64,000 bases of DNA, from assembly GCA_041946735.1 (NCBI GenBank), contig JBHGAY010000024.1:6114-70113 (forward strand). Reading direction: 5' to 3'. The notes below the pieces were generated by a model. It had not been told where the DNA came from. It did not search any database and saw only the letters and a list, made by a program, of their open reading frames with translations. Positions 10,178 through 49,171 of the stretch are shown here, piece after piece (position 1 is the stretch's first letter; each line of letters begins with the position of its first letter). Origin of the DNA: Candidatus Eiseniibacteriota bacterium (GTDB taxonomy: Bacteria > Eisenbacteria > RBG-16-71-46 > CAIMUX01 > VGJL01). The translations under genes were made by a program, and so were the position numbers.

Positions 10178-11766
10178 CGCAAACCTCCCTCGATCCGGTC
10201 CCTCGTGATCGGACGGCCGGCACCGGCGGGGGCGGCGCCGCTACCGCCGCCGCCATCGCCGATTGCCTCCCCGGTCGCCTCCCTGCCGCTCGCCGGCTGC
10301 GCGTGACCGAGCAGCGCACGCTCGACCGCCTCCGCCATCCCTTCGTTCGAAGCCTCCCGCGCCTCCGCGTCCGGAGCCATGCCGAGCGAGCGCATCGCGG
10401 CCGCCGTCGTCGGACCGATCGCCACGACGCGGGGCCGCGGAGCGGGCGCTTCCCGCCACGCGCGGCCGAGCAGCGCCTCGAACGCGCGCGCCCCCGACGG
10501 GCTCGTCAGGCAGATCGCGTCGATCCTGCCCGCGAGGAGATCCGCCTCGATCGCTTCGAACGCGACGCCGCCGGAGAGCTCCGTGCGGTACGCGACGACC
10601 TCCGTCACCTCGACGCCGGCCGCGCGCAACCGCGCCGGCAACTCGGGCTGCGCCTGCTCGGCCCGCGGCAGGAGCGCGCGGAGTCCCGCAGGCCGATCGA
10701 CTCGCGCGAGCAGCGCGCCGGCGAGCGCGCCCCCGGTGGCGGTGGCCGCCACGAGATCGCACCGGCCGAAACGGTCACGCGCGCGGGCCGCCGTCGCCTC
10801 GCCCACCGCGCCGATCGCGGGACGATTCCCGGACAGCGGCCGGCCGGCCCCAGCCGGCGCCGCGCCGCCTTCCGTCGCGTCGGCGAACGCATCGACCCCG
10901 CGCGCGCTCGTGAAGAGGACCCAGTCGTACGAGGCCGCCCGGGCCGCAGCCTCCTCGAGCGGACGTCGATCCCGCGGGGGCTGCGTCACGAGCAGGGGCA
11001 GGTGGAGCGCAACTCCCCCGCGCCGCTCGATCGCAGCCGCCAGGCCGTCCCCCTCCTCGCGCGTCACGAGAATCCGCGCTCCCCGCAGCGTTCCGGCGAT
11101 CCCGCTCCCCGCCGCGGCGCCTCCTGCCCCGAGGCCGCGCCACACGAAGTCGAAGAGCTGCTCGGGCTCCGCGTTGCCGCGTTGCGCGGCCTTCCCCTCG
11201 GCGAGACACCGCAGCGCCGCTCCCTCCAGCGCGCCGAGCACCAGATCGGTCGCCATCTCGACCGGCATCGCGCGCACGCTTCCTTCCGCAAGCCCTCGCT
11301 GCAGCTCTTCGCGCAGCAGGGAGCGGAGCCGGTCCCATCGGGGCGCCGCGCCGCCCTCCACCGCGCTGCCGATCGGGCAGGCCTCCTCCTTGCGCATCAT
11401 GCGGAAGAAGTTCGGGTAGCGGAGCAGGAACAGGAGGACGTGGACGAGGATCTTCCTCAAGCGGAGCTTCGAGCTCTCCTCCCCCTCGAACGCCGCGCGC
11501 AATCCCTCCATCAGGTGATCCATGCGCGAGTCGAGGATCGAGAGGTAGAGGTTCTCCTTCGAGGGGAAGTACAGGTAGAGCGTCCCCTTCGCCACCCCGG
11601 CGCGTTCCGCGAGCTCTTCCATCCGGACCTGGGAAAGCTCGCGCCCGGCGAAGAGCCCCGCCGCCGCTTCGAGGATCTCCTCGCGCCGGCTCCGGCCTCC
11701 GCCGCCGGCAGCGCCGTTGCCGTTCGCGCTCCTCGCGCGCCCGCCTCCCGCCTCCGCCGCCATCAC
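10174..11766 (-). CDS. hemD: TetR-family HTH regulator fused in frame to uroporphyrinogen-III synthase
   Basis: The N-terminal ~200 aa match a TetR HTH plus TetR_C domain ([46 protein letters not shown]). From about aa 230 the sequence matches HemD ([11 protein letters not shown]...[15 protein letters not shown]...[11 protein letters not shown]). There is no stop codon between the two parts. ATGA overlaps on both sides, with hemC and hemB. Confidence 0.6.
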
Positions 11767-12803
11767 GGCTCCCCCGGCTGCGCCGCTCCGCGCGCCCGCG
11801 CCTCCGCGAGAAGCTCCTTCGCCCCGGAGGCGAGAAGCTCGGCGGCCAGCGCGACGCCGGTCGCCTCGGCCTCCGCGATCGTCCCCTCGCGCGCGCCTCG
11901 AAGCAGCTTCCGCCCGTCGGGATCGGAGACCATCGCCTCCAGCCGCAGCCGCGGCCCTTGCCCCTGCCCCTTCCCCTGCCCCTGCCCCTGCGGATCTTGC
12001 GGGACGATCCGCGCCAGCGCCCCCACCGGAACCTGGCAGCCTCCCCCCAGCGCGTGCAGGAAGGCTCGCTCCGCCGTCACCGTCGCCCGCGTCACGGGAT
12101 CCTCCAGGCGCGCGAGAAGCGTCGCCGCCCAGCCGTCCGCCTCGCGGATCTCGACGCCCAGCGCCCCCTGCGCCGGCGCCGGCAGCAGCAGGGAGGCCGG
12201 CAGGACTTCCGTCACGTGACGAAGCAGGCCGAGCCGCGCAAGACCGGCGTGCGCGAGGACCACCGCGTCCAGCTCGCCCCCGAGCGCCTTCTCGAGTCGC
12301 GTGGGGACGTTGCCGCGCAGCGGCAGGATCTGCAGATCGCCGCGCGCGTGCAGCAGCTGCGCCCGCCGCCGCAGGCTCGAGGTCCCGACCCGCGCCCCCT
12401 GCCGCAGGTCCGCGAAGCTCGACGCCCCGCTCGCGACGAGGACGTCGGCCGGCTCTTCCCGCGACAGGATCCCGCCGAGCGCGAGCCCGCCGGGCAGCTC
12501 GGTCGGAAGGTCCTTCAGGCTGTGCACGGCCAGGTCGATCGAGCCGGCGAGCAGAGCGCGCTCGATCTCCTCCGTGAACAGTCCCTTGCCACCGATCTCG
12601 GCGATTGGCTGGTTGAGGGCTCGATCCCCGCGGGTCGAGAGGATCTCGATCCTCACCTGGAGATCCGGCTCCAGCTCGCGCAGTCGCGCCGCGACGTGCT
12701 CCGCCTGCCAGCGCGCGAGCGCGGATCCGCGCGAGCCGATCGTGAGCTGCCGGCCGGCGCCGGGAGCAGGACCGCGCGCGCCCGCGTCAGCCGGCGTTTC
12801 CAT
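11763..12803 (-). CDS. hemC: hydroxymethylbilane synthase (porphobilinogen deaminase)
   Basis: LTIGSRGSALARWQAEHV, KGLFTEEIE, HSLKDLP and the dipyrromethane cofactor Cys in GGGCQVPVGA. Contains an in-frame Gly-Gln repeat insert (QGQGQGKGQGQG). Confidence 0.9.
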   Translation of the reverse strand: METPADAGARGPAPGAGRQLTIGSRGSALARWQAEHVAARLRELEPDLQVRIEILSTRGDRALNQPIAEIGGKGLFTEEIERALLAGSIDLAVHSLKDLPTELPGGLALGGILSREEPADVLVASGASSFADLRQGARVGTSSLRRRAQLLHARGDLQILPLRGNVPTRLEKALGGELDAVVLAHAGLARLGLLRHVTEVLPASLLLPAPAQGALGVEIREADGWAATLLARLEDPVTRATVTAERAFLHALGGGCQVPVGALARIVPQDPQGQGQGKGQGQGPRLRLEAMVSDPDGRKLLRGAREGTIAEAEATGVALAAELLASGAKELLAEARARGAAQPGEP

Positions 12804-33686: not shown

Positions 33687-34889
33687 CTACTCCGCCGCCA
33701 AGGCCTCCACCGGATCGAGGGAGGCCGCCCGGCGCGCCGGCAGGATCCCGCTCGCCAGCCCGACCACGAAGCTCACGCCGAGCGCGAGGAGCACGTAGAG
33801 GAGGGGCGTCCGCACGGGAAGCGCGGGAATCGCCGCGTGGATCAGCCGCGCGAGCCCGATGCCGGCGGCGAGCCCCAGAATCCCGCCGCCCGTCGAGAGG
33901 ACGAGCGCCTCGGCGAGGAAGAGCGCGAGGATCTGCCCCGGGGTGGCGCCGAGCGCCTTCTCGAGGCCGATCTCGGCGGTCCTCTCGTTGACCGAGATCC
34001 ACATCATCGTGAGGATGCCGATCGCGCCGACGAGCAGCGAGATCGCGCCGATTCCGACGACGGCGAGGCTCACGATCCGCAGGATGCGGTCGAGCGTCTC
34101 CAGCATCCCGGTCTGGGTCGTGATCGAGAAGTCCTCTTCCCCGTCGTGACGCTCCGCGAGCACCGCCTCGATCCGCGCCGAGACCGAGTCGACGACGGAG
34201 AGGTTCGAGAAGACGACGTCGATCTCGGTCAGTTCGTCCTTGTTGAAGAGCGGCATCGCGAGGGTCACCGGAATGTACGCAGCGTCGTCGATGTCGAAGC
34301 CGAGGAACTGCCCCTTCGGCTCCATCACTCCGATCACGCGGAATCTCTGCCCGCCGATCCGCACGTGCTCGCCGAGCGCGTTCTTCTCGCCGAACAGCTC
34401 GCGCTTGAGGGTCGGGCCGAGCACCGCCTCGGCGGATCCGCCGTACGCGCCGGCGTTGGGCAGGAAGCGGCCGACACGCACCGACATCCCCCATGCGGCC
34501 GCGGCGTCCCTCGTCGCGCCGTAGACGAAGACGCTGCGCGAACGCCCCGCGTACTCGACCGGCGCCGTCCCGACCGACGCCGGCACGACCGTCTGCACTC
34601 CCCGAACGCGGGTCACGGCTTCGGCGTCGCCGATCGTCAGGGGATGGACCGTCCCGCCGATCGCGGCCGGCACCCCCGTCGTCTCCGTCCTCCCCGGGTG
34701 GATGGCGGCGAGATTCGTCCCGAACTGCGTGAACTCCGACAGGATGTAGAGGCGCGTGCCCTCCCCGATCGACGTGAGCAGGATCACCGAGGCGATGCCG
34801 ATGAGGATTCCGAGCATCGTCAGGGCGGACCGTTGGCGGTGGCCGCGCACGGCGCGCAACGCCGAGCCGACGACGTCCTCGAAGATCAT
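33687..34889 (-). CDS. ABC transporter permease, FtsX/MacB family
   Basis: ALRAVRGHRQRSALTMLGILIGIASVI N-terminal TM helix, periplasmic domain, and C-terminal FtsX 4-TM bundle (ISLLVGAIGILTMMWISVNERTAEIG). Confidence 0.8.
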   Translation of the reverse strand: MIFEDVVGSALRAVRGHRQRSALTMLGILIGIASVILLTSIGEGTRLYILSEFTQFGTNLAAIHPGRTETTGVPAAIGGTVHPLTIGDAEAVTRVRGVQTVVPASVGTAPVEYAGRSRSVFVYGATRDAAAAWGMSVRVGRFLPNAGAYGGSAEAVLGPTLKRELFGEKNALGEHVRIGGQRFRVIGVMEPKGQFLGFDIDDAAYIPVTLAMPLFNKDELTEIDVVFSNLSVVDSVSARIEAVLAERHDGEEDFSITTQTGMLETLDRILRIVSLAVVGIGAISLLVGAIGILTMMWISVNERTAEIGLEKALGATPGQILALFLAEALVLSTGGGILGLAAGIGLARLIHAAIPALPVRTPLLYVLLALGVSFVVGLASGILPARRAASLDPVEALAAE

Positions 34890-36091
34890 CCCCGCCTCCG
34901 CATCAGGGCCTGGATCGGATCGAGACGCGCTGCGCGCCGGGCCGGCAGGATCCCGAACGCGAGCCCGACCGAAGTCGAGACGGCGAGCGCGGCGACGACC
35001 GCCCAGACGGGGGGACGCGCCGGAAAGTCCGGGAAGAAGCCCTGGAAGATCCGGCCCCCGAGGATGCCGATCGCGAGGCCGAGGATCCCGCCCGCGGTCG
35101 AGAGGATCGACGCCTCGAGCAGGAACACGGCGACGATCTGGCGGGAGCCGACGCCGACCGCCTTCAGCAGTCCGATCTCGCGGGTGCGCTCGGAGACCGA
35201 GACGAGCATCACGTTCATGATCCCGATTCCCGCCACCGAGAGCGAGATCGCGGCGATCCCGGCGAGAGCGGCGGTGAGCATCCCGAGGATCTTCTGGAAC
35301 GTCGAGAGGACCGCATCCTGCGTGAGCGTCGTGAAGTCCTCCTCGCCGTCGTGGCGCTGCTTCAGGATCTCGATCGCACGCTCCCGCGCCGGCTCGATCG
35401 CCGGCGCGCTTCGCAGCTCGATCAGCACACGGAAGAGGCTCCGGGCGTTGAGCAGACGCATGCCGGTCTCGATCGGGATGTGGACGGTCTCGTCCACGTC
35501 CATGCCGATCGAGGTGCCTCGCGGCGCGAGCACGCCGATGACGCGGAAGTTCGTGTCGCCGATCCGCACCTTCTCGCCCAGCGGATTGCGATGGCCGAAC
35601 AGCTCCTGCTGCACCTTGGCTCCCAGGACGGCGAACGGCGCGTCGCGCGTGCCCGGCGGGAAGTAGCGACCGATCCGCACCGACAGCTTGCGCACCTCGC
35701 GCATGTCGTCGGTCGTCCCAAGCACCATGATGTCTCGGCTCCGGTCGCCGACGCTCGCCGCGGCGCTGCCGACGACGAGCGGAGCGGCGCGCACGATCTC
35801 CGGCATCTGGCGCTCGAGCGCGCCGACGTCCTCGAGGGTCAGGTCGTGCGGCGCGGTGTTGACGACCGGCGCTCCGCCCTGCGTCTCCGTCTTGCCGGGC
35901 AGGAGAATCAGGAGGTTCGAGCCGAGCGACGCGAACTCACCGGTCACGTAGAGCCGCGCCCCTTCTCCGAGGCTCGTCAGGAGGACCACCGAGCCGACGC
36001 CGATCGCCACGCCGAGCAGCGAGAGGAAGCTCCGGAGGCGATGCCCGCGCAGCGCGCGCAGCGCGTAGCGCGCGAGATCGCGCGCCCTCAC
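34886..36091 (-). CDS. ABC transporter permease, FtsX/MacB family (second copy)
   Basis: Paralogous to the previous permease from [35 protein letters not shown] start overlapping the ATPase stop (GTGA). The upstream 200 aa of the track ORF are Arg/Gly filler. Confidence 0.7.
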
Positions 36092-36903
36092 GGCCGCTCC
36101 GTACCGGGCGCCGGAGACGCCGGCGGCGCCGGGAATGACGCCGGCGCCTGCTCCGGCGCCGGCGCCACCGCTCCGCTCCGCTGCCGTTCGTCGGCAACGA
36201 TCGCCCCGTCGCGCAGCCGGACGCCCCGAGCCGCCCGCGCTCCGATCGCCGGATCGTGCGTGACGATCACGAGCGTGAGCCCCGCCCGGTTGCGCTCCTC
36301 CAGGAGCCCGATGATCTCGCTCCCCGAGACGCTGTCGAGGTTGCCGGTCGGCTCGTCGGCCAGCAGGATCGCCGGCTCCATCACGACGGCGCGCGCGATC
36401 GCCACGCGTTGGCGCTCCCCACCGGAAAGCTGGTCCGGCCGGTGCTCCGCTCGCGGCGCGAGACCGACCGACTCGAGCGCCCGCGCCACGCGCCGCCGCC
36501 GATCGGCCGGCTCGACGCCGGCGAACATCATCGGCAGCTCGACGTTCTCCGCGGCCGTCAGGCGGGGCACCAGATGGAAGAACTGGAAGACGAAGCCGAT
36601 CTTCTCGCGGCGCACGAGCGACAGCTCGCGATCCGAAAGCTTCGACGTCTCCTGCCCGTCGAGACGGTAGGAGCCGGACGTCGGACGATCGAGGCATCCG
36701 ATGAGGTTCAGCAGCGTGGACTTTCCCGACCCGGAAGGTCCCATGATCGAGACGTACTCGCCGGCGCCGATCGAAAGGTCGACGCCGCGCAGCGCGAGCA
36801 CCGGGCGTCCGCCGACCTCGAAGGTCCGCGAGATTCCCGACAGCAGGATCATCGGCTCCGCCATCGCCCGCGCGCTCCGCTCGCTCACCTGACCCGCCGC
36901 CAC
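36088..36903 (-). CDS. ABC transporter ATP-binding protein (LolD/MacB-type)
   Basis: Walker [14 protein letters not shown]-loop, signature [14 protein letters not shown], Walker [13 protein letters not shown]. The start may be Met14 (36864) instead of the track start. Confidence 0.8.
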
Positions 36904-36906
36904 CGC

Positions 36907-38139
36907 CTAGCGGCGGGCCGTCCGCTCCGCCACGGTGGCCCGCACTCCTGCCTTCACCTCCGGACGGTCCAGCGAGACGACGACCTCCTCCCCCTCGCGC
37001 AGCCCTCCCGTGATCTCGGCGTACTCCCAGTTGCGCAGTCCGATCCGGACGGGACGGCTCACCAGCCTGCCCTTCTCGACCACGAGCACGCGATCCCCCT
37101 CGAGGAGCGCGTAGGTCGGGATCCGCACGACGTCCTCCTGCGCCTCGAGAATCACTTCGACGTCGGCGGAGAGCCCCGGCACGAGATTCCGTGGAAGATC
37201 CTGCTGCGTGAACGTCGCCTCGACGGTCAGCGTGCGGTTCTGCTCCTGGCGCGTCTCGACGAACGAGGAGATGTAGGTCAGCACACCGGGGAACTCCTGC
37301 CCGCGAAAGGCGTCCATCGTGATCCGCACCGGCAGTCCCAGATGGACCTTCGCCACATCGGCCTCATCCAGCGGCGCGCTCACGTAGAGCGAATCGGGAT
37401 CAATCAGATCGACGACGGGCGGGATCATCACCCCGGGCGGCGAGGGGGTGATCCATTCGCCGACCTCGGTCGTCACGTCGAGGACGACCCCGTCGAAGGG
37501 GGCGCGAATCACCGTCTTGTCGAGGGCCGCCTGCGCCGCTTCGACCGACGCCTGCGCCTGGCGCGTCTGCTCCCGCGCCGCCTCGCACCCCGCCGTCGCG
37601 ACTTCCGCGTTCGTCCGCGCCTCCTCGAGGCGCTGGTCCGCGATCAACCCCTGCGTCGCGAGCTGCTCGGCCCGCTCGCCGTCACGCCGCGCCTGATCCG
37701 CCGACGCGCACGCCTGTTCCGCCGCAGCGCGCGCCGCCGCGCGCGATCGGTCCGCCTGCGCGAACTGCGCGCGATACTCGGTGTCGTCGATGCGAAGCAG
37801 CACGTCCCCCGCCCGCACCCGTTGCCCTTTGCGCACCGGGATCGCGGCGACCAGCCCAGACACGCCCGGACTCATCTGCGAGCGCCGGCGGGACTCGACG
37901 GTCCCCGCTCTCGTGTTCACCACCGTCGACTCGACGCGGCCGCGCTCAACCGTCGCCACCGTGACGGGCACCGGCTCCGGACGAAAGACCGTCCACCGGA
38001 GGATGAGGACGACGAGGACGATTCCACCGAGAATCAGAAGCCTGCGTGTCCAACGGCTCACGGGAACCTCGCGTTCGATTGGGTCCTTCGGGGATCCTAA
38101 CAGGGGGGCGCAGGGCCGCAAGGCGTGGCGCGGTCGCAT
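36907..38139 (-). CDS. HlyD-family membrane fusion protein (periplasmic adaptor)
   Basis: N-terminal TM helix LLILGGIVLVVLILRW, Ala/Gln-rich coiled coil, and beta-barrel/MPD domains (VIRAPFDGVVLDV...). Confidence 0.75.
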   Translation of the reverse strand: MRPRHALRPCAPLLGSPKDPIEREVPVSRWTRRLLILGGIVLVVLILRWTVFRPEPVPVTVATVERGRVESTVVNTRAGTVESRRRSQMSPGVSGLVAAIPVRKGQRVRAGDVLLRIDDTEYRAQFAQADRSRAAARAAAEQACASADQARRDGERAEQLATQGLIADQRLEEARTNAEVATAGCEAAREQTRQAQASVEAAQAALDKTVIRAPFDGVVLDVTTEVGEWITPSPPGVMIPPVVDLIDPDSLYVSAPLDEADVAKVHLGLPVRITMDAFRGQEFPGVLTYISSFVETRQEQNRTLTVEATFTQQDLPRNLVPGLSADVEVILEAQEDVVRIPTYALLEGDRVLVVEKGRLVSRPVRIGLRNWEYAEITGGLREGEEVVVSLDRPEVKAGVRATVAERTARR

Positions 38140-38221
38140 GCCGGGGCGCTCGCACCGCCGCCCGAGCTATCGCCCGAGCCGCCGCCCGAGCCGCCACCAT
38201 ATGCGCCGCGGCACGCGCGCT

Positions 38222-39001
38222 TCAGGGCAGAACCAGGGCCGCCGGTGGAGAGACGCGCAGGAGATCCCCGCCGGAGAGCGCCGCCACCCGGCAGAAGACG
38301 GTGGCGCCGGAGACGCCCAGACGCGCGAGACGCGCCGGGTCGAGAACCAGGCTCGTGTCCGCCGTCGTCGCCGGCCACGCGGTCTCGGCGAGCGAGTCGC
38401 CATAGAAGAGGATCCGGTAGGAGTCCGCTCCGCGTACGCTTCGCCAGGCAACGCGCACCGATCCACCGGCAATCCGCTCGAACGAAGGGGCCGGCGTGCT
38501 CGAATCGCCCGGCTCGCCGCGCAAGGCAGGCGTCGCCGGCGGGGCCGGAGAGCGCGGCTGTAGCAGCGAGCCGCCTCCCAGTTCGAGGAAGATCCCGATC
38601 ACGAGAAGCGCCGCGCCCGCGGCGAGCGCCGGCCGGAACGCGGGAACGAGAAGGCGGGCGAGCCGGCCGAGCGGCCCCGGCGGCCCCGGCGGCTCGGGCG
38701 GGCCGGACCGCCCCCGCCGGCCTGCTTCGCGCCCTTGCTCTGCGTCGCCGTCCGTCCATCCGCGCAGCGACTCCGTCACCGGCAGTCCCGCCTCCCGCCG
38801 GATCGCGCGGGACAAGCGCTCGGCCGCCTCGCGCGGCTCCGCCCCTTCCGGCACGGCCGCCGCGGGATCCAGGAAGAGCTGCAGGGAACGCCAGCGCGCC
38901 CGGCATCGCGGGCAGCCTTCGAAGTGCGCACGCGCCGGATCGGAAGCGGGAAGCCGATCGATCCGCTCGAGCGATTCGACCGGCGGGCAGATCTCGGTCA
39001 C
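38222..39001 (-). CDS. anti-sigma factor, zinc-finger (ZAS-like) N-terminus, single TM helix, periplasmic C-terminal domain
   Basis: From a GTG (GGAGG Shine-Dalgarno) giving VTEICPPVESLERIDRLPASDPARAHFEGCPRCRARW (C-x22-H-x3-C-x2-C). TM helix LAAGAALLVIGIFL. GTGA overlap with the sigma factor stop. Confidence 0.6.
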   Translation of the reverse strand: MTEICPPVESLERIDRLPASDPARAHFEGCPRCRARWRSLQLFLDPAAAVPEGAEPREAAERLSRAIRREAGLPVTESLRGWTDGDAEQGREAGRRGRSGPPEPPGPPGPLGRLARLLVPAFRPALAAGAALLVIGIFLELGGGSLLQPRSPAPPATPALRGEPGDSSTPAPSFERIAGGSVRVAWRSVRGADSYRILFYGDSLAETAWPATTADTSLVLDPARLARLGVSGATVFCRVAALSGGDLLRVSPPAALVLP

Positions 39002-39693
39002 GTTGCGCCTCCTCTTCCTTCGCCTCGCGCGCGATCGTCCGCGACACGGCGTCCGATCGGCGCCGCCGCGCCGCCGGCGTTCACGCGCCGGCCGAGCGCC
39101 GCGGCCTCGTGCTTCGCCCCGTCTTCGAGCGCCGCGCGGAGTTTCCGGCGCGCTCGCTGCAAGATCCCTCGCGCTCCCGACGCGGTGTCGATCGCGAGCA
39201 ATCGGGTGATCTCCTCGACCGGCAGCCCCTCGTAGCACCGCAGCCAGATCGCCTCGCGTTCGAGCGGATCGAGGTGCCGCCGAACGAGCGCCAGCACCGA
39301 CTCCTCGTCGAGCCTCTTCTCGAGCGTTTCGCTCGGATCGGGCGCCGGATCGGCCACGCGCTCGATCCCTTCTTCGTCCTCGTCGAACAGCGGCGAGGGC
39401 CGCCGCACGACGCTCAGGCAATGGTTGCGCGCGATCACGAAGAGCCAGGTCGCGAAGCAGCTGCGCCCTTCGTAGCCGGCGATCCCGCGGTACGCCTTCA
39501 ACAGCGAGTCCTGAGCCAGGTCGAGCGCCTGCTCGTGGTCCCGCACGATCCGGTAGCACCAGAGGTAGACACGCTCCCGGTAGCGCTCGAGGAGGACCGA
39601 GGCGGCCCGCCTCGCCTCCTCGCCCGCACGATCCTCGCGAGCGATGCAGACCAGCTCGGAGTCGTCGAGCAGCGCCAGATCTCGTTCGGTCAC
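38998..39693 (-). CDS. ECF-family RNA polymerase sigma factor
   Basis: C-terminal 231 aa of a 1273-aa track ORF: sigma-70 region 2 (LLERYRERVYLWCYRIVRDHEQALDLAQDSLLKAY) and region 4 (LDPLEREAIWLRCYEGLPVEEITRLLAIDTASGARGILQRARRKL). The start is placed at a GTG overlapping the upstream gene's TGA. Confidence 0.6.
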   Translation of the reverse strand: MTERDLALLDDSELVCIAREDRAGEEARRAASVLLERYRERVYLWCYRIVRDHEQALDLAQDSLLKAYRGIAGYEGRSCFATWLFVIARNHCLSVVRRPSPLFDEDEEGIERVADPAPDPSETLEKRLDEESVLALVRRHLDPLEREAIWLRCYEGLPVEEITRLLAIDTASGARGILQRARRKLRAALEDGAKHEAAALGRRVNAGGAAAPIGRRVADDRARGEGRGGAT

Positions 39694-42668
39694 CCCATGG
39701 GACGCTCGCTTTCTGAATCCGTCACGCGAACCGTTGCCTCCGGTCCAGGCGGCAGCGTCCGGCCCGCCGCCTCCGGCCGCTCCCCCGCCGCCGAGAATGA
39801 GCGCAACACGATGCCCAGCAGCACGAAGGCGGCGCCGCCGGCGAGGGCGAGCCGGCCCCAGGGCACAGGCCGGGCCGGTTGGATCGGGATCCGAAGGGAG
39901 CCGTCCCCCAGCACGACGAAGCCCGCCCAGAAGAACGGGTGGCGGGTGCGCGGGTCCTCGCGGATCGCCTCGCGCGCGCGCATCAGCGCGCCCGAAACCG
40001 TCGCCCCGCCGGCGAGCTCGTCGTAGAAGCATGCGGCGAAGCGTTGCGCCGCTTCGTCCTCGACCGGCCACAGGGTGGCGGCGACCGAGGAGGCGCCCGA
40101 GCAGAGGAGCGCAGTCGACAACCCCTGCATCCCCTCGCCCGAGACGATCGCCCCTCGCGCCGTGCGGCAGCACGACAGGACGGCCAGGCGTGCCGGAATG
40201 CGGGACGCGGCGATCGCCTTCGCGTGCAGCGGCCGCGCGCCGAGCGCGATCTCCGAGAGCCACGGGCGCCCGTCCTGTCCAAGCGCGTGCGCGGCGAAGT
40301 GGACGACGAGGCGCGGGGCGGCGAGATCGGCGAGGCCGAGCGTGTCGCGCGGCCCGAGGACTCGCAGATCGACCCCGCGATAGGCGCGCGCGATCCGCTT
40401 CGCCTCGCGCGCTGCGCCGGGCAGGCCGATCGTCCCTGCTTGGGGCGCGGCGACCGCCAGGATCGGTCTCGCGAGGAGCGCTTCCGCGCTGGCCGCGCTC
40501 GCGTCCGCGCCGGCCGCGCCCGCTTCCGCCGCCCGGGCTCCGGCCAGGATCGCGGGCGAGGCGATCCTCGTCCACTCGCGGTCCCGGCCGTCCCCTGCGG
40601 CATCGAACGACTCGAACGGGGCGAGGTGGGCGACGCCGTCTGCGGCGACGAGGATCCGATCGCTCTTCGCCACCCAGTCCCCCAGATCGGGGAGGAGCGC
40701 GCGGCAGAGCGCGGCGGCCGCCATCCGGCATTCGCGCACCCCGGCGCCTCGCGCGGAGTCCGGGCTCGCGAAGAGGTCGAGGACGAGCCGCACGCCCGGC
40801 TCGATCTCCCCTTCGGGAGGAAGCGAGCGGACGCAGCAGGAATCGCGCGTGAACGCGAAGAGCCAGCTCGCCCGGCCGCCGAGATGGTAGTCGAGGAGCA
40901 GCTCGCCGGGCTCGAGCGGCGGCAGGAGCGCCGACGCGGCCGCGCTGCGCGGCAACGCCGTCGCCGGCCCCGCGATCCGCTCGAGGAGCGTTCGCGCCTT
41001 GAAGACGGCGACCCGCTCGTACGCGGCGCGCACCGCGCTCGGTCCCGCCGCCTTCTCCGGATCGGCGCCGAGGAGAAGACCGGCCAGGCTCGTCGCGATG
41101 CTCCGTCCCGCGGCGCTGCGCTGTTCGCGCCACTCGGGATCGAGCGGCAGCCCGCGCTGCGCCTCCCAGACGCGAGCCGCGGCTTCGAGCGACGCGCGCG
41201 CGCTGTCCGGCCGCCCGAGATCGACGAACGCGCGCGCCAGCGCGAGGAGCGTCTCGAGCCGGACCGCATCGAGGCCCGGTCTGGCCGAGAGCCCAGCAGC
41301 GAGGCGCAGGGGCGCCAGCGCCTCCGCGGGCCGTCCCTCCTCGACACGCAGCTCGCCGAGCCGCGCTGCGAGCCTTCCTCTCTCCTCGGGACCGTCGATC
41401 TCCGCGCGCGCGAGCGCCCCTTCGAGGATTGCGATCGCCTCGGCCCTCTCCTGCGCGCTCTCGCACGTGCGGGCGAAGGCGGCGAGCGCCGCCGCCCGCG
41501 TCGCCGCCGGGGCCGGCGGATCCGCCGCGAGAATCTGACGGAAGATGCGGCGCGCCTCGCGCGTCCGGCCCTGCGACGCCCGTGTCTGCCCGAGCTGCCG
41601 TAACAGCTTCGCCCGCAGATCGCCGTATCCCTCCCGCTCGCAGATCGCGAGCATCGCCTCGAGCGAATCGCATGCCTGCTCCGGATCCCCGAGCTCCGCG
41701 GCGCAGAGGGCGAGATTCATCCCTGGGACGATCGACTCCCGCATCTCTCCGTAATCCCGATAGCTCGCCAGAGCCTCGTCGAACGCGGTCGCCGCTTTCG
41801 CCGGATCTCCGAGCCGGTACTCGAGAGTGCCGAGATTGTTGCGGGCGAGGCACGTCACCATCGGATACCGGCAGGAATCGGCGAGGACCGCCGCTCGCGC
41901 GAACTCCTCGCGCGACCGCTCGTAGGCGCCCGTTCTCCCGAGAGCCACGCCGCGCGAGTTCCGAGCCCACGCCTCGCCGCGCCGCTCCCCTCCTGCCCGG
42001 AAGAGCGCGATCGCGCGATCGAGCGTCGACGCCGCCTCCACCGCGCTGCCTCGCACGACCTGGTCCCACCCGATGCCGACGAGCGCCCAACCTTCCTGGA
42101 CGCGATCCCCGCGAAGGCGCGCGAGGACAGCAAGCGAGTCGTAGAGCGCGCGCGCCTCCTCGGTCCGTCCCTGATTGGCGACGGCGACCGAGAGCCAGCG
42201 GATCGCGACGCAGGCGGAGGCGGAATCGCCGCGTGCGCGCGCGATCGCGAGGCAACGACGGAGGATCGTCTCGCCTTCGCGCGCCGCGCCGATCGATGCG
42301 CGCAGCTCCCCCTCGCGGAGCCCGAGCCACAGCATCCGTCCCGAGTCGCCCTGCGCTTCGGCCTGCTCGCGCAGGCGCTCGATCGCGGGGAGCGCGGAGT
42401 CGGGCCGTCCGGCGAGACGGAGGCGCTCGACCCTCGCGAGATCCGGCGCGAGAGGGGTCGCAGGAGGGAGGAGCGGGCGCGGGCGCGACAACGCGCGCGA
42501 AGCCAGCGACGGCGCAGGCACCGCGGCGCAGGCGGCCCCGAAGGCGCCCGCGCAGGCGGCGGCGAACACGAGCGCGAGCGCGCAGGCGCCGCGGCGCAGC
42601 CGCAACGCTCGCTCGCCCTTCGCGATCGACCGCAGGGATCGCATGGCCGGTCGGCCGTCCAACGCCAA
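39690..42668 (-). CDS. TPR-repeat protein with C-terminal CHAT (caspase-like) domain and C-terminal TM anchor
   Basis: Signal peptide, about 500 aa of TPR-like repeats, then a CHAT domain: VVHFAAHA...LAVLSCCRTARG (His/Cys dyad), then the hydrophobic segment LALAGGAAFVLLGIVL. Confidence 0.7.
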   Translation of the reverse strand: MALDGRPAMRSLRSIAKGERALRLRRGACALALVFAAACAGAFGAACAAVPAPSLASRALSRPRPLLPPATPLAPDLARVERLRLAGRPDSALPAIERLREQAEAQGDSGRMLWLGLREGELRASIGAAREGETILRRCLAIARARGDSASACVAIRWLSVAVANQGRTEEARALYDSLAVLARLRGDRVQEGWALVGIGWDQVVRGSAVEAASTLDRAIALFRAGGERRGEAWARNSRGVALGRTGAYERSREEFARAAVLADSCRYPMVTCLARNNLGTLEYRLGDPAKAATAFDEALASYRDYGEMRESIVPGMNLALCAAELGDPEQACDSLEAMLAICEREGYGDLRAKLLRQLGQTRASQGRTREARRIFRQILAADPPAPAATRAAALAAFARTCESAQERAEAIAILEGALARAEIDGPEERGRLAARLGELRVEEGRPAEALAPLRLAAGLSARPGLDAVRLETLLALARAFVDLGRPDSARASLEAAARVWEAQRGLPLDPEWREQRSAAGRSIATSLAGLLLGADPEKAAGPSAVRAAYERVAVFKARTLLERIAGPATALPRSAAASALLPPLEPGELLLDYHLGGRASWLFAFTRDSCCVRSLPPEGEIEPGVRLVLDLFASPDSARGAGVRECRMAAAALCRALLPDLGDWVAKSDRILVAADGVAHLAPFESFDAAGDGRDREWTRIASPAILAGARAAEAGAAGADASAASAEALLARPILAVAAPQAGTIGLPGAAREAKRIARAYRGVDLRVLGPRDTLGLADLAAPRLVVHFAAHALGQDGRPWLSEIALGARPLHAKAIAASRIPARLAVLSCCRTARGAIVSGEGMQGLSTALLCSGASSVAATLWPVEDEAAQRFAACFYDELAGGATVSGALMRAREAIREDPRTRHPFFWAGFVVLGDGSLRIPIQPARPVPWGRLALAGGAAFVLLGIVLRSFSAAGERPEAAGRTLPPGPEATVRVTDSESERPMG

Positions 42669-42829
42669 AGGCCCCTCCGCGGCACGAGTGAAAACCGCGT
42701 GAACCAGTGTACGCCGGTCGGATGATTGCGCCAGCCCTCTTCCCCCGCGTCGAACTGCCTCGCCGCCGCGCCGCTGTTCCCCGGCCGCCCCGCGTCTGGT
42801 AGCTTGTCCGGTCCCCCAAGGAGGAACCG

Positions 42830-44623
42830 ATGCACGAACGGCCTGTCCTGATGGTCGTCGACGACGACAGCGAGAGTCTGCACCGCCTCTACGAGGCGCT
42901 CGACCGGCGGCTCCACGCCGACTACCGGGTCTCCGCCCACACCTCCGCAGCCGAAGCGGTCGCCGAGCTGCGCCGCATCAAGGAGCTTGGACATGCGGTC
43001 GCGCTCGTGATCGCCGATCAGTGGATGCCGGAGATGACCGGAATCGACCTGCTCGGCGAAGCGCATCTGCTCCATCCTTCGGCGCAGCGGGCGCTGCTCG
43101 TCGATTGGGGGGATCGCACCGCGTCGCCGACCATCCTGCAGGGATGCGCGCTGGGCAAGCTGGAGAACTACATCACGAAGCCCTGGTCGCCCCCCGAGGT
43201 GCACCTCTATCCGCTCGTGGACCAGTTCCTCGCCGACTGGACGCGCGCACACCGCCCACAGATGGAGCTGGTCCGGATCGTCACCGGCCATCCCTCTCCA
43301 CGCGGCCACGAAATTCGCGACCTTCTCGTGCGAAGCGGGATCCCGCACGGCTACCACCTCGTTGACTCGGAGACCGGCCATCGACTTCTCGAGCAGACCG
43401 GGCAGGACGGCTCGCGCCTCCCGCTCGTGATCCTGCTCGACGGCCACACGCTGGTCGATCCGACGAACGAGGAGATCTACGACGCGCTGGGCGCCTCGAA
43501 CATGGAGGATCGCTTCTGCGACCTGCTCGTGATCGGCGGCGGCCCGGCCGGACTCGCCGCGGCCGTTTACGGAGCGTCCGAGGGCTTGTCGACCCTCGTG
43601 GTCGAGCGCGAGGCGATCGGAGGGCAGGCGTCGACGGCCGCGCTCATCCGCAACTACCTCGGCTTCCCCGCCGGAATCAGCGGCGCCGATCTCGCGCAGC
43701 GCGCCTACAACCAGGCGTGGCTCTTCGGCGCGAAGTTCGTCTTCGCGAGAGGCGCCGTCTCGCTTCACGCGAAGGGGACGAAGAGGATCGTGACGCTTTC
43801 CGACGGCACGGAGATCACCGCCCGCGCGGTCCTGATCGCGACCGGCGCCTCCTATCGCCGGCTGAACATTCCGAGCGTCGACCGGTTCTCGGGCGCCGGC
43901 GTCTTCTACATCATCCCCTCCCGGGTCTCGCTCTTCCGCGGGCAGAACATCTACATCGCCGGCGGTGGCAACTCGGCCGGCCAGGCGGTCGTGCATCTCG
44001 CCAAGCAGGCGGACCACGTGACCTTGCTCGTGCGGGGAGACTCGCTCGAGAAGGGGATGTCCGACTATCTCGTCCAGCAGATCCGGCAGACGCCGAACGT
44101 CACGGTGCGGCTGCGGACGGAAGTGATCGGCGGCGAGGGGAACGAGACGCTCGAGCGGATCGTCCTGAGGGACCATGCGGCCGGAAAGGACGAGACGCTC
44201 GGGCTCGACGTCCTCTACGTGCTGATCGGCGCTCTCCCTCACACCGACTGGCTCGGCGCGGCGGTGCAACGCGACCGCAATGGCTTCGTCCGTACGGGCC
44301 GCGAGGTCGACACAGGCCGCGCGGCCGGCTGGCCGGCGGGGACCTGGCCGTCGAGGTTCGCCACGAGCCTTCCGGGCGTCTACGCGGTCGGCGACGTCCG
44401 GCTCGGTTCGGTCAAGCGAGTGGCTTCCGCGGTGGGCGAGGGGTCGGTCGCCGTCCAGTACATCCACGACTACCTGGACGATCCCATTTCCCTGGAGGAT
44501 GCCGGTTCGATCCTTGCCGGCGATACGGCGCGGATCGAGGGTCTCCCGACTCCGGAGCGCGTCTCGGTGGAGGCTGCAACGGCGGCGGCGAAGATGGAGG
44601 AACTGCCCCCCGGCCGGGTGTAG
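42830..44623 (+). CDS. response-regulator receiver domain fused to a thioredoxin-reductase-like FAD/NAD(P) flavoprotein lacking the CxxC redox centre
   Basis: REC: VLMVVDDDSESL...VIADQWMPEMTGIDLL...ITKPW. Flavoprotein: LLVIGGGPAGLAAAVYGASEG...IYIAGGGNSAGQAV...GVYAVGDV. At the position of the TrxR CATC motif the sequence is FYIIPSRVS, with no cysteines. Confidence 0.7.
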   Translation: MHERPVLMVVDDDSESLHRLYEALDRRLHADYRVSAHTSAAEAVAELRRIKELGHAVALVIADQWMPEMTGIDLLGEAHLLHPSAQRALLVDWGDRTASPTILQGCALGKLENYITKPWSPPEVHLYPLVDQFLADWTRAHRPQMELVRIVTGHPSPRGHEIRDLLVRSGIPHGYHLVDSETGHRLLEQTGQDGSRLPLVILLDGHTLVDPTNEEIYDALGASNMEDRFCDLLVIGGGPAGLAAAVYGASEGLSTLVVEREAIGGQASTAALIRNYLGFPAGISGADLAQRAYNQAWLFGAKFVFARGAVSLHAKGTKRIVTLSDGTEITARAVLIATGASYRRLNIPSVDRFSGAGVFYIIPSRVSLFRGQNIYIAGGGNSAGQAVVHLAKQADHVTLLVRGDSLEKGMSDYLVQQIRQTPNVTVRLRTEVIGGEGNETLERIVLRDHAAGKDETLGLDVLYVLIGALPHTDWLGAAVQRDRNGFVRTGREVDTGRAAGWPAGTWPSRFATSLPGVYAVGDVRLGSVKRVASAVGEGSVAVQYIHDYLDDPISLEDAGSILAGDTARIEGLPTPERVSVEAATAAAKMEELPPGRV

Positions 44624-45863: not shown

Positions 45864-46721
45864 TCAGCCGGTCGGCAGCGAGCGCGGCTTCTTCCCGCGC
45901 GGAAACGCGCGATCGATCTCCGCGATCTCCTCGGGCGACAGAACGAGATCTCCGGCGGTTGCGTTCTCCTCGACGTGCGCGGCGTTCGCCGACATCGGGA
46001 TCGTGAAGAGCGGCTCCTCACGGACGAGGAAAGCCAGCGCGACCGCCGCCGGCGTCACGCCGTGCGCCTCGCCGATCCGTCGCAGCACCCCGGCCGAAGC
46101 GCCGTCCTTCTCACCCTTCGCGCCCAGGGCGTGCCGCGCGCCGAGCGGCGTGTACCCGACGACGGCGATCCCGAGCGCGCGGCAGGCCGGGAGCAGTTCG
46201 TGCTCGATCCCGCGCTGCTCGAGATTGTACAAAACCTGATTGCACGCGATCCTGCCCGGCCCGGCGATCGCCACCGCCTCCTGCACGTCCCGCGCATCGA
46301 AGTTCGACACGCCGTAGGAGAGGATCTTCCCCTCGTTCCGCAGCTCCTCGAAGGCGCCGAGCGTCTCGCGCAGCGGGACAGAGCTGGGCCAGTGCAGCAG
46401 GTAGCAGTCGAGCCGGTCGGTCCGCAGACGCCGCAGCGAGGCCTCGCACGCGCGGCGCACGCCGTCGCGCGTGGCATTCGACGGCAAGACCTTGCTCACC
46501 AGGAACACCTCGTCGCGCCGCCCCGGAATCGCCTCGGCGATCACCTCCTCGGCGCGGCCCGATCCGTACATCTCCGCGGTGTCGAGATGCGTCATGCCCA
46601 GGTCCAGGGCGCGACGGATCGCGCGGACCGCTTCTCCACGGTCCGCCTGCTCGATCCGCCAGGTTCCCTCCCCGATCAAGGGGACGGGGACGCCGGTCGG
46701 CCCGAAGGGTCGCTTGCGCAT
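45864..46721 (-). CDS. aldo/keto reductase family oxidoreductase
   Basis: C-terminal 285 aa of the track ORF: LGMTHLDTAEMYGSGRAEEVIAEAI, catalytic tetrad context LDCYLLHWP, and IPMSANAAHVEEN. Confidence 0.8.
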   Translation of the reverse strand: MRKRPFGPTGVPVPLIGEGTWRIEQADRGEAVRAIRRALDLGMTHLDTAEMYGSGRAEEVIAEAIPGRRDEVFLVSKVLPSNATRDGVRRACEASLRRLRTDRLDCYLLHWPSSVPLRETLGAFEELRNEGKILSYGVSNFDARDVQEAVAIAGPGRIACNQVLYNLEQRGIEHELLPACRALGIAVVGYTPLGARHALGAKGEKDGASAGVLRRIGEAHGVTPAAVALAFLVREEPLFTIPMSANAAHVEENATAGDLVLSPEEIAEIDRAFPRGKKPRSLPTG

Positions 46722-46919
46722 GCCCCGCCAGTCTACGAGGATCGGGCGGCCCGGCGTCAGCGTGCGAGCGTCGGGAGGTGGGCGGGCGAGGCGGCCGAAA
46801 GCCCGGGAACATTCGCTTGGCGGCCGCGCGCCCGACGGCGATACTGGCCCGTCGGCAATCCGCGCATTCGCGCGCTCCGGTCGAGCGAGCGCCGCTTCGC
46901 CGGAGAAAGGAGACGCGAC

Positions 46920-47513
46920 GTGACGAAACGGATCCTCCTCGCCGGCCTGGCCGGCGGCATCGTTCTCTTCGTCTGGAGCAGCTTCTCGCACATGGCCCTG
47001 CCCATCGGCGAGATGGGGCTGTCGACGCTCGGCCACGAGCAGCCGGTCCTCGATGCGCTGCGCGCGAACGTGGACGCCGACGGGCTCTACTTCTATCCGC
47101 AGATGCCGCCCGGCATGGCAGGACGGAAAGCGCAGGAGCAATGGGCGCAGAAGATCCGCTCGGGACCGTCGGGACTCCTGCTGATCCACGTCGCCGGGAG
47201 CGAGCCGATGACCCCCTGGCAGATCGTGATCGAGCTGCTGACGAATCTGATCGCCTGCATCCTCGTCGCGGCCCTCCTCTGGTGGCTGCACATTCGCCCG
47301 CTCTCGGCCGGGTTCGTCGGCGCATTGCTCGGCTTCCTCGGATGGCTGAACATCAGCGCGTCGTACTGGAACTGGTACGGCTTCCCGGCCGCCTTCGTGA
47401 TCGGCGAAGGAATCGACCAGATCATCGGGTGGTTCCTCGCGGGGCTCGTGATCTCCGCCGTGCTTTGGACCGGCGCCCGCCGCTTCGCGCGCCGGGCGAC
47501 CGTGGCCGCGTGA
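46920..47513 (+). CDS. hypothetical membrane protein (197 aa)
   Basis: GTG start after AAAGGAGA. Signal/TM helix ILLAGLAGGIVLFVWS and two further TM helices near the C-terminus. Confidence 0.4.
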   Translation: MTKRILLAGLAGGIVLFVWSSFSHMALPIGEMGLSTLGHEQPVLDALRANVDADGLYFYPQMPPGMAGRKAQEQWAQKIRSGPSGLLLIHVAGSEPMTPWQIVIELLTNLIACILVAALLWWLHIRPLSAGFVGALLGFLGWLNISASYWNWYGFPAAFVIGEGIDQIIGWFLAGLVISAVLWTGARRFARRATVAA

Positions 47514-47881: not shown

Positions 47882-49171
47882 ATGCGAAGACGAGGCCTCT
47901 GGATTCTCCTCGGCACGGTGCTGCTCGCTGCCGCGGTCGTTCTGCTCTCCGGATTCCCGCTGACCGGCAAGGTCAAGATCCCCACGGCGAAGGTGCGGAA
48001 GGGCGATTTCCTGATCTCCCTGAAGGCGACCGGCGAGGTCCAGGCCAAGCGGGCCTACACCGTCGTCGCCCCGCGCATCCGGAACATCCAGATCACCTGG
48101 ATGGCCCCGGAGGGGAGCATGGTCAAGGCCGGCGACGCGGTCATCCGCTTCGACTCCAGCCAGCAGCAGGCCGATCTGGCGGAGAACCAGTCGTCCCTCC
48201 AGATCAGCCAGACCGCGCTCCAGCGGCAGAAGACGGAGTACGAGATCCAACAGAAGGAGCTTTCGCTCGAGCTGCGTCGCGCCCAGCGAGCCTACGACGA
48301 GCAGAAGCACGAAGCGCCGAAGGTCGCCGAGGAGGCGCGGCTCGCGCTCGAGCTCGCCGAGCTGAACGCGAAGGCGAAGCTCGACCAGATCGAGGCCGAC
48401 ATCCGCAAGGCGGAGCTCGAGGTGCAGCGCGCCGAGGACAAGGTCGACCTCGCCCAGAAGGAGCTCGACCAGATGACGCTGACCGCCCCGATCCCGGGGA
48501 TGGTCGTCTATCTCGAGATCTGGAAGGGAAGCACCATGGGGAAGGTCCAGGAGGGCGACTCTCCCTGGCCGGGACAGGGATTGATCAACCTGCCCGACCT
48601 GGGCGAGATGATCGTCAACGCGACGGTCTCCGAGGTGGACGCGAGCCGCGTCGACGCCGGCCAGGAGGCTCTCGTCACGCTCGACGCCTTCCCTGACGTC
48701 CGCTTCCAGGGGAAGGTGACCCGCAAGGGAACGCTCGCGCGCCGCAAGGAGCCCGACTCGAAGATCAACGTCTTCGACGTCGAGATCGCGATCGACGACG
48801 TCGACGAGCGCCTGAAGCCCGGAATGTCCGCTTCCGCTCAGATCGTCGTCGACAAGATCCCCGACGTCGTCTCGGTCCCGCTCGAGGCGGTGTTCGAGTC
48901 GGCCGGCTCGCCGGTCGTCTACCTCGAGAATCGCAAGCCGCACACCGTCGCGGTCGGCCGCCGCAATGACATGGAGATCGAGATCACCTCGGGACTCGCC
49001 GGCGACGAGACGATCTGCCTCGTCGACCCGAAGATCGCGCGCCACGGCCTCCCCGGGGATCGCGCCACCGAGCCGGAGCTGAACCGCGGTCGGACCGCCC
49101 CGTCTCCCGCTCCCACAACGTCCGAGCCGGCCGCGGCCCCCGCGCGACGCGGCCGGGCGAAGTCCGGATGA
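47882..49171 (+). CDS. HlyD-family membrane fusion protein
   Basis: N-terminal TM helix, long coiled coil (Gln/Ala/Glu-rich), then LTAPIPGMVVYLEI and a beta-barrel domain. Confidence 0.75.
   Translation: MRRRGLWILLGTVLLAAAVVLLSGFPLTGKVKIPTAKVRKGDFLISLKATGEVQAKRAYTVVAPRIRNIQITWMAPEGSMVKAGDAVIRFDSSQQQADLAENQSSLQISQTALQRQKTEYEIQQKELSLELRRAQRAYDEQKHEAPKVAEEARLALELAELNAKAKLDQIEADIRKAELEVQRAEDKVDLAQKELDQMTLTAPIPGMVVYLEIWKGSTMGKVQEGDSPWPGQGLINLPDLGEMIVNATVSEVDASRVDAGQEALVTLDAFPDVRFQGKVTRKGTLARRKEPDSKINVFDVEIAIDDVDERLKPGMSASAQIVVDKIPDVVSVPLEAVFESAGSPVVYLENRKPHTVAVGRRNDMEIEITSGLAGDETICLVDPKIARHGLPGDRATEPELNRGRTAPSPAPTTSEPAAAPARRGRAKSG

Follow-up and report, generated by a model that had tools for sequence, protein, structure and literature searches.

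A conserved TPR-CHAT, ECF sigma factor and anti-sigma factor module in Candidatus Eiseniibacteriota, with a candidate caspase-like site-1 protease acting in trans

The window analysed here is a stretch of 64,000 nucleotides from a Candidatus Eiseniibacteriota bacterium (contig JBHGAY010000024.1, assembly GCA_041946735.1), and all coordinates are positions in that whole stretch. Three genes follow one another on its minus strand: one for a tetratricopeptide repeat (TPR) protein with a CHAT domain (39690..42644), one for a sigma factor of the extracytoplasmic function (ECF) type (38998..39693) and one for a transmembrane anti-sigma factor (38222..39001). They are chained by two GTGA overlaps, ATGGGGTGACC at the CHAT/sigma junction (39693) and ACGTGACC at the sigma/anti-sigma junction (39001). 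A gene on the plus strand (42830..44623), which encodes a receiver (REC) domain joined to a thioredoxin reductase (TrxR)-like flavoprotein, is divergent from the trio across a gap of ~185 bp. An earlier interpretation made from the letters of the DNA (hereafter the sequence-only reading) had placed the four genes at these same positions and had noted the GTGA overlaps, and this layout was recovered. The region has ~72% G+C, and long spurious open reading frames (ORFs) are frequent there; the four genes are nevertheless genuine, because their family scores are strong and the module recurs in dozens of genomes. That the trio forms a conserved three-gene module is well supported. Sequence and structure comparisons also make it plausible that the module is a regulatory system in which the CHAT protein serves as a trans-acting, caspase-like site-1 protease.

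The TPR-CHAT gene encodes 984 amino acids (aa) from the ATG at 42644, with an alternative in-frame TTG start at 42668, and its product is 100% identical to a 984-aa “CHAT domain-containing protein” at NCBI from a Candidatus Eisenbacteria metagenome-assembled genome (MAG). Residues 643–914 (39903..40718, minus strand) form the caspase-like domain and match the Pfam CHAT family PF12770 over profile positions 4–289 of 289 (137.5 bits against a cut-off of 24; E value 8e-40). Many TPR families, TPR_12 and TPR_2 among them, are also matched in Pfam, and the TPR superhelix occupies approximately residues 66–560 (40965..42449, minus strand), for which AlphaFold2 (AF2) gives regular helix pairs at 66–558. 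The His/Cys dyad described in the sequence-only reading consists of H786 (codon 40287–40289, minus strand) and C826 (codon 40167–40169, minus strand), and both codons were verified. That reading had named loss of the dyad among orthologues as a point that would count against it; H782, H786 and C826 are kept without exception in 20 orthologues of 29–44% identity. The CHAT model match and the conserved dyad mark the protein as a putative peptidase.

The N-terminal 45 residues (42510..42644, minus strand) contain positive charges, MRSLRSIAKGERALRLRRG, followed by a hydrophobic stretch, and constitute a putative signal peptide or signal anchor; by inspection, typical Sec signal peptides are found at the same place in the orthologues. 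Close to the C-terminus, approximately residues 925–952 (39789..39872, minus strand) form a hydrophobic membrane anchor, LALAGGAAFVLLGIVL, with its membrane helix at about 931–947, which AF2 models as a helix at 929–951 and which precedes a short tail predicted to be cytoplasmic. The anchor is present in 7 of the 8 orthologues inspected; the CHAT protein of locus L006 has no C-terminal membrane helix. The topology of both the CHAT protein and the anti-sigma factor was judged from sequence inspection and AF2 models. On these grounds the bulk of the CHAT protein is predicted to face the periplasm with its C-terminus tethered, as had been supposed, and the combination of signal peptide and C-terminal anchor would thereby put the protease and the anti-sigma ectodomain on one side of the membrane.

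The AF2 model of the CHAT protein (pLDDT 84, pTM 0.76) was compared with the PDB using Foldseek. The best fold match is DdvA of Myxococcus xanthus (PDB: 8rw5; E value 1.4e-13, TM 0.42/0.47, 912 aligned columns, 17% identity), followed by separases (ranks 2–11, 9–13% identity) and the craspase component Csx29 (ranks 13–31). Queries of the PDB with HMMER, using either the CHAT protein or its 20-sequence profile, returned only generic TPR matches and no DdvA, and the relation to DdvA is thus visible at the level of the fold only.

The sigma gene encodes 231 aa, and its GTG start overlaps the CHAT stop codon as GTGA. Its product reaches 80.6 bits (cut-off 42.9) with the sigma70-ECF model TIGR02937 and 52.7 bits (cut-off 24) with Sigma70_r2, which confirms the ECF identity assigned earlier; the matches to two region-4 families, at 21.9 and 21.2 bits, narrowly miss their cut-offs. 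The protein has sigma-2 and sigma-4 regions only, and its nearest PDB sequences are ECF sigma factors. No NCBIfam equivalog was reached by the window sigma factor at its cut-off. The C-terminus is ~30 residues longer than in the orthologues (231 vs ~200 aa); this extension (38998–39120, minus strand) is Gly/Ala/Arg-rich and precedes the overlap with the anti-sigma start.

The third gene encodes 259 aa from a GTG that overlaps the sigma stop codon as GTGA. No Pfam family (zf-HC2 and similar) was found for its product at E ≤ 0.01, and the sole match to a curated model was to the NCBIfam entry “antisigma” (17.4 bits against a cut-off of 100). The features expected of a transmembrane zinc-finger anti-sigma factor, as which the sequence-only reading had described it, can be recognized in the protein itself. 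The N-terminus contains the CHCC motif of zinc-binding anti-sigma (ZAS) factors, C5 ... H26-x3-C30-x2-C33 (H26FEGC30PRC33; 38903..38989, minus strand), within a helical bundle that AF2 builds from helices at 8–15, 22–29, 31–44 and 56–71. One hydrophobic membrane helix follows at approximately residues 120–143 (38573..38644, minus strand; AF2 helix 126–142), then a linker (residues 142–167) with pLDDT below 50, predicted to be disordered, and finally an FN3-like ectodomain, predicted to be periplasmic, at residues 170–259 (38225..38494, minus strand), which is a beta-sandwich with pLDDT ~90 in the AF2 model. Foldseek matched the ectodomain to FN3 domains (E value ~1e-4, TM up to 0.68), and a profile search gave a weak match to the “Fn3-like protein” 3mpc. 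Because the AF2 run used an alignment of 6 sequences, the model of the anti-sigma domain and membrane helix is of modest confidence. The linker and the FN3-like domain would provide the accessible periplasmic part that proteolytic control presupposes and that the sequence-only reading had required.

A profile search of a word-indexed database yielded just 6 homologues of the anti-sigma factor, and an exhaustive search of representatives was then used, in which the family comprises ~400 clusters at 50% identity (E ≤ 1e-30). Among 148 cluster representatives, with mutual identities of 50% or less, the four zinc ligands are kept in 88–95%, and two positions alone are invariant (148/148 each), namely one Trp of the FN3 domain and an Arg in the linker. 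The same Arg is invariant in 54/54 homologues derived from the loci described below. It belongs to a V-L-R-G motif that typically starts ~11 residues past the membrane helix, and in the window it is R161 of L160-R161-G162 (38516..38524, minus strand), which we consider a candidate site of CHAT cleavage or docking. The protein may well bind zinc, and it probably binds and inhibits its cognate sigma factor, since its gene always follows the sigma gene in the related loci, with translational coupling. The anti-sigma factors of L006, L039, L042, L065, L068 and L077 have lost the Cys/His zinc ligands and keep both the linker Arg and the FN3 Trp.

A protein search returned ~20 clear orthologues of the CHAT protein (29–44% identity over ~88% of its length), below which scores fall sharply to generic TPR-CHAT proteins. 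In all 7 orthologue contigs inspected, a Sigma70_r2 gene and a gene for a family-less protein of ~225 aa adjoin the CHAT gene. A scan of one genome per species gave 78 further loci in MAGs of Eisenbacteria, Krumholzibacteriota and Latescibacterota, often with two or three copies per MAG, and the loci were scored with hidden Markov models built from the first eight trios. Flanks of 1.6 kb or more on each side were available for 59 family members; an adjacent sigma gene is found in 48 of them, an adjacent anti-sigma gene in 48 and both in 47, and the synteny in related genomes that the sequence-only reading called for is thus observed. Over all family loci, the gene order is CHAT>sigma>anti-sigma in 33, sigma>anti-sigma>CHAT in 20 and convergent in 2. 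At least 4 of the 11 exceptions (L035, L047, L057 and L060) carry a divergent ECF sigma/HxxxCxxC anti-sigma pair beside the CHAT gene and upstream of it. This second type of anti-sigma factor has a different ectodomain, with a motif like GVSFRL..GYPVLVHIDGDG, and here too the membrane helix is followed by LVLRGD or VVARD.

The pairwise distance matrices of the three proteins are correlated (Mantel r = 0.78 for CHAT and anti-sigma, 0.73 for CHAT and sigma, 0.74 for sigma and anti-sigma; permutation p = 0.001 each). Because the linkage is conserved and the matrices correlate, the trio is judged to be passed on and duplicated as a unit. The Latescibacterota chromosome CP070763.1 contains an additional hint: at L061:3956-7291, a single ORF of 1111 codons encodes, in order, a signal peptide, TPR, CHAT, a membrane helix, RWRRGAR, a second membrane helix, ILRGD and FN3. 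The cytoplasmic anti-sigma domain is missing from this fusion, and no sigma gene is found nearby. Because the two helices form a hairpin, CHAT and FN3 come to lie on one side of the membrane, and the fusion may be taken as a hint, of the Rosetta-stone type, that CHAT and the anti-sigma factor interact directly.

Linkage, fusion and co-diversification speak for a partnership of the two proteins, not for cleavage. They would also suit a CHAT protein that is a sensor or co-receptor, and not the protease of the anti-sigma factor. Its TPR region, which is large and well conserved, would bind the FN3 domain or the linker and gate either RseP or another site-1 protease (of the DegS, Prc or CtpB type), and its active site would process the protein itself or some other substrate, such as a signalling peptide or secreted cargo. 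A role of this kind has a parallel in the bulky periplasmic domain of DdvA, proposed as a steric block to RseP (PMC11506125). We consider such an arrangement rather unlikely. The invariance of the dyad in 20 orthologues implies that catalysis matters, the most conserved feature of the anti-sigma factor is a short motif in a disordered linker, which is typical of a cleavage site, and the 7 orthologue contigs inspected have no further protease gene as a conserved member of the module.

In both gene orders the sigma gene is immediately preceded by a two-block motif, TGTGAT(T)-N16-(G)CGTC(TCA). A relaxed form of the pattern was found in 33 of the 59 loci, and many others have TGTGAT with a variant second block. 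In overlapping loci with the CHAT gene first, codons for the C-terminal tail of the CHAT protein harbour the motif, e.g., SVIRPPQERLMG* in L001. The window contains CGTGAC-N16-CGTC (39701..39726, minus strand) within the CHAT gene's 3' end, with the sigma GTG 7 nt further on, at exactly the position seen in L001, L004 and L029; we regard it as a putative sigma-dependent autoregulatory promoter. A scan of the window with a position weight matrix (PWM) performed no better than shuffled sequence (top score 15.6 against shuffle maxima of 13.8–22). The promoter call therefore rests on the homologous position, since the PWM match is not significant window-wide, and for the same reason no regulon can be named in the window. 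The best PWM match, at 52057 (minus strand), was rejected as a promoter, being antisense inside an ORF. Positions 37900–43000 yielded neither a sigma-70-like promoter nor a convincing terminator. The sequence-only reading had placed the regulatory region between the divergent genes (42668–42830), and the sigma-type motif is instead inside the CHAT 3' end. In most loci the sigma start codon is 7–10 nt past CGTC, a spacing that suggests leaderless sigma transcripts.

The position of the motif bears on whether the CHAT protein acts on the sigma/anti-sigma pair or is produced at its command. As an output of the sigma factor, the CHAT protein might be, for example, a protease for envelope quality control or for the processing of surface proteins, linked to the pair through the operon or regulon only. 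This would fit the 20 loci with the order sigma>anti-sigma>CHAT, where the CHAT gene is downstream of TGTGAT-N16-CGTC, the second and less regular copy of the motif upstream of CHAT in some CHAT-first loci (L001, L011 and L029), and the copies before genes of large secreted proteins, which are possible CHAT substrates. In the window and 32 other loci, however, the CHAT gene stands upstream of the sigma promoter motif, which is inside its 3' end; in the window, therefore, the presumed autoregulated promoter does not precede the CHAT gene. Moreover, the CHAT protein tracks the anti-sigma factor at least as closely as the sigma factor does, at L061, where no sigma gene is present, CHAT is fused to the anti-sigma ectodomain, and the closest fold of the CHAT protein is itself the sensor domain of an anti-sigma factor. 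We therefore hold a role as mere output to be distinctly improbable.

The secreted proteins just mentioned are encoded directly downstream of the module in L013, L021, L032, L053, L064 and L070, as well as at L002:8783-12775 and L005:8891-13003. They contain FG-GAP, beta-helix/NosD, beta-propeller and CARDB regions and end in a C-terminal FlgD_ig or Por_Secre_tail domain. Several secreted-protein genes in the sister loci are preceded by a second copy of TGTGAT-N16-CGTC, which makes them candidate members of the regulon. A small protein of ~124–138 aa without a Pfam family, whose gene stands between or after the module genes in some loci, has the motif upstream at L030:6740-7156, L037:2201-2611, L052:9630-10046 and L085:574-948.

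In classical regulated intramembrane proteolysis (RIP), as exemplified by DegS/RseP with RseA and by PrsW/RasP with RsiW, a site-1 protease first removes the extracytoplasmic part of a single-pass anti-sigma factor. To our knowledge, the route by which the anti-sigma factor is inactivated is not known for most ECF sigma groups. The window anti-sigma factor resembles those of classical RIP in having a single membrane crossing and an extracytoplasmic part. The candidate site-1 enzyme differs: DegS and PrsW are unlinked serine or metallo-proteases, whereas the CHAT protein is a caspase-like cysteine protease of clan CD whose gene belongs to the operon and which co-evolves with the presumed substrate.

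The sequence-only reading had offered cleavage of an anti-sigma factor by CHAT as an alternative to the classical site-1 step. The idea has precedents: two characterized systems already join CHAT to the control of ECF sigma factors through their inhibitors, DdvA/DdvS (PMC11506125) and craspase (PMC10028731). DdvA/DdvS of M. xanthus (PMC11506125, PMC6061681) has an ECF sigma factor held by a CHCC zinc-finger anti-sigma domain, a single anti-sigma membrane helix followed by a flexible linker, and a periplasm-facing TPR-CHAT region with the His/Cys dyad kept, all as in the window. Autocleavage of DdvA in its linker, ahead of RseP, has been proposed (PMC11506125), and the logic we propose for the window module is the same, a site-1 cut by CHAT followed by RseP. 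The differences are equally clear. Throughout the related loci, as in the window, protease and anti-sigma factor are separate polypeptides; in the window the sigma gene stands between their genes. Since the anti-sigma domain and TPR-CHAT are on different polypeptides, the window system is not a member of the DdvA family. Nor is it a simple split of DdvA, because a signal peptide and a C-terminal anchor belong to the CHAT protein itself and an FN3-like ectodomain to the anti-sigma factor; the latter also has the invariant VLRG motif. The promoter motifs are TGTGAT-N16-CGTC in this module and GTAA-N16-CGT for DdvS, and the hosts are Eisenbacteria, Krumholzibacteriota and Latescibacterota as against Myxococcota. 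Finally, DdvA is reported as narrowly distributed. The present module has several paralogues per genome and no defence-island context.

The craspase of type III-E CRISPR systems (Cas7-11, Csx29, Csx30 and CASP-sigma; PMC10028731) resembles the module as proposed here in having a TPR-CHAT protein, of related fold, whose target in trans is a separate inhibitor of an ECF-type sigma factor, and cleavage of Csx30 by Csx29 lifts the inhibition of the ECF-like sigma factor (PMC10028731). It differs in being cytoplasmic, RNA-guided and bound to Cas7-11, and its substrate Csx30 is soluble and unrelated to ZAS anti-sigma factors. Unlike Csx29, the window CHAT protein has a signal peptide and a membrane anchor, and there are no CRISPR genes, such as those for Cas7-11, Csx30 or Csx31, among its neighbours. 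Because it is exported and has no CRISPR context, the window system is not a craspase. Separases have the same architecture of helical repeats and a caspase-like domain, and they cleave after Arg within unstructured motifs (PMC11506125), a preference that parallels the invariant Arg of the linker; they are unrelated in their biology, resemble the CHAT protein in fold alone (9–13% identity) and lack membrane topology. The DdvA and craspase papers were the only full-text literature found that joins CHAT with an ECF sigma or anti-sigma factor, and CHAT is absent from the main text of the ECF re-classification by Casas-Pastor 2021.

Since both characterized CHAT/ECF systems control defence loci, the module could be pictured as an anti-phage regulator like DdvA/DdvS or craspase, in which CHAT senses phage and the sigma factor induces defence genes. 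The surroundings of the module give this idea very little room. PADLOC returned no system-level match, just a weak partial BovA match on the CHAT core, and genes for transporters, redox enzymes and secreted proteins with FG-GAP, beta-helix or FlgD_ig regions surround the module in the 8 loci inspected, with no CRISPR or CBASS genes among them. The presence of several paralogous modules per genome argues against a defence role as well.

We propose instead, with a probability of roughly 0.55, that the trio is a three-component ECF module, comparable to a DdvA distributed over separate proteins, in which the CHAT protease cuts the anti-sigma factor. According to this proposal, the TPR-CHAT protein would be exported via its signal peptide and retained at the inner membrane by the C-terminal helix, with the TPR region and the caspase-like domain in the periplasm. 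The CHCC domain of the anti-sigma factor would hold the ECF sigma factor in the cytoplasm, while the chain crosses the membrane once and exposes the linker with V-L-R-G, and then the FN3 domain, outside. An envelope signal, probably sensed by the TPR region and/or the FN3 domain, would lead CHAT to make the site-1 cut in the linker, with the favoured position at or beside the invariant Arg. An intramembrane protease of the RseP type, together with cytoplasmic proteases, would then clear the remaining stub and release the sigma factor. From TGTGAT-N16-CGTC the latter would drive transcription of its own operon, probably into a leaderless mRNA, and of a regulon that in the sister loci would include large secreted beta-helix, propeller or FlgD_ig proteins. 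Taken as a whole, the picture of a dedicated periplasmic caspase-like protease that recognizes V-L-R-G as a site-1 protease in trans, in a widespread, paralogue-rich and so far undescribed family of three phyla with its own promoter motif, leaderless mRNAs and secreted surface proteins under its control, falls in our judgement a little short of even odds.

The proposal that CHAT acts on the anti-sigma factor, as the sequence-only reading had it, draws on gene content and linkage, co-diversification, the invariant dyad and linker Arg, the predicted topology, the L061 fusion, the DdvA fold and the promoter-like motif; from these we infer the cleavage. Several observations weigh against the proposal. 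Approximately 7 of the 59 loci have no adjacent sigma gene of either type. Co-diversification is partly expected from the shared ancestry of neighbouring genes, the fusion at L061 is a single case that could be a deletion remnant, and the invariant Arg could instead serve in docking or in the structure. Cleavage by craspases occurs after Met or Leu rather than Arg, and the autoproteolysis of DdvA is itself still a proposal in the literature (PMC11506125). In loci with the sigma gene first, CHAT is downstream of the sigma promoter and could equally be an output of the system, and the motif copy in the window has one mismatch and is not significant window-wide. With protease and substrate on two proteins, and R161 as a candidate site, the idea that CHAT is a site-1 protease can be put to a direct test in trans, either in vitro or in a heterologous host. 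The link between CHAT and ECF sigma factors now extends to three poorly known candidate phyla, and the predicted promoter motif can be used for regulon mapping in uncultured bacteria.

The divergent gene at 42830..44623 (plus strand) encodes a protein with Response_reg and Pyr_redox_2 domains, and the sequence-only reading had suggested that it feeds a phosphorylation or redox signal into the trio through the shared intergenic region. The gene is indeed divergent from and adjacent to the CHAT gene at ~185 bp, and redox-flavoured genes are neighbours of the module in its closest relatives: AhpC/Redoxin and DsbD_N in L001 (L001:10059-11519), and VKOR-DsbA, MsrA and Hsp33 in L004 and L029 (thiol/oxidative-stress genes at L004:3844-5769 and 10280-11950, and at L029:2264-3190 and 8655-9797). 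A signal input from the flavoprotein is nonetheless scarcely credible. No homologue was found in any of the 85 related loci, no DNA-binding domain is among its family matches, the TrxR-like part has no CxxC, and neither the conserved sigma promoter motif nor a sigma-70-like promoter was detected in 42668–42830. What stands of the earlier suggestion is the divergent neighbour itself, which we treat as unrelated to the trio and outside the conserved module. The redox theme of the neighbourhood, which is absent from L008 and L009, is a weak lead.

The REC domain of this protein looks canonical, with DD, D63 in ADQWMPEMTG and a K-P motif. An identity as thioredoxin reductase was rejected, the protein having only two Cys residues and no CxxC and scoring below the cut-off of the thioredoxin reductase equivalog TIGR01292 (206.9 bits against 343). 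From its domain content it appears to be a receiver-controlled flavoenzyme.

Directly downstream of the anti-sigma gene is a gene for an HlyD-family membrane-fusion protein (36907–38139, minus strand), and beyond it one for a MacB/FtsX-type permease (34886–36697, minus strand); no copy of the sigma motif was found before these HlyD/MacB-type genes. On the other side of the module, the window contains an aldo/keto reductase gene (45864–47291, minus strand) and a second HlyD-type gene (47882–49171, plus strand).

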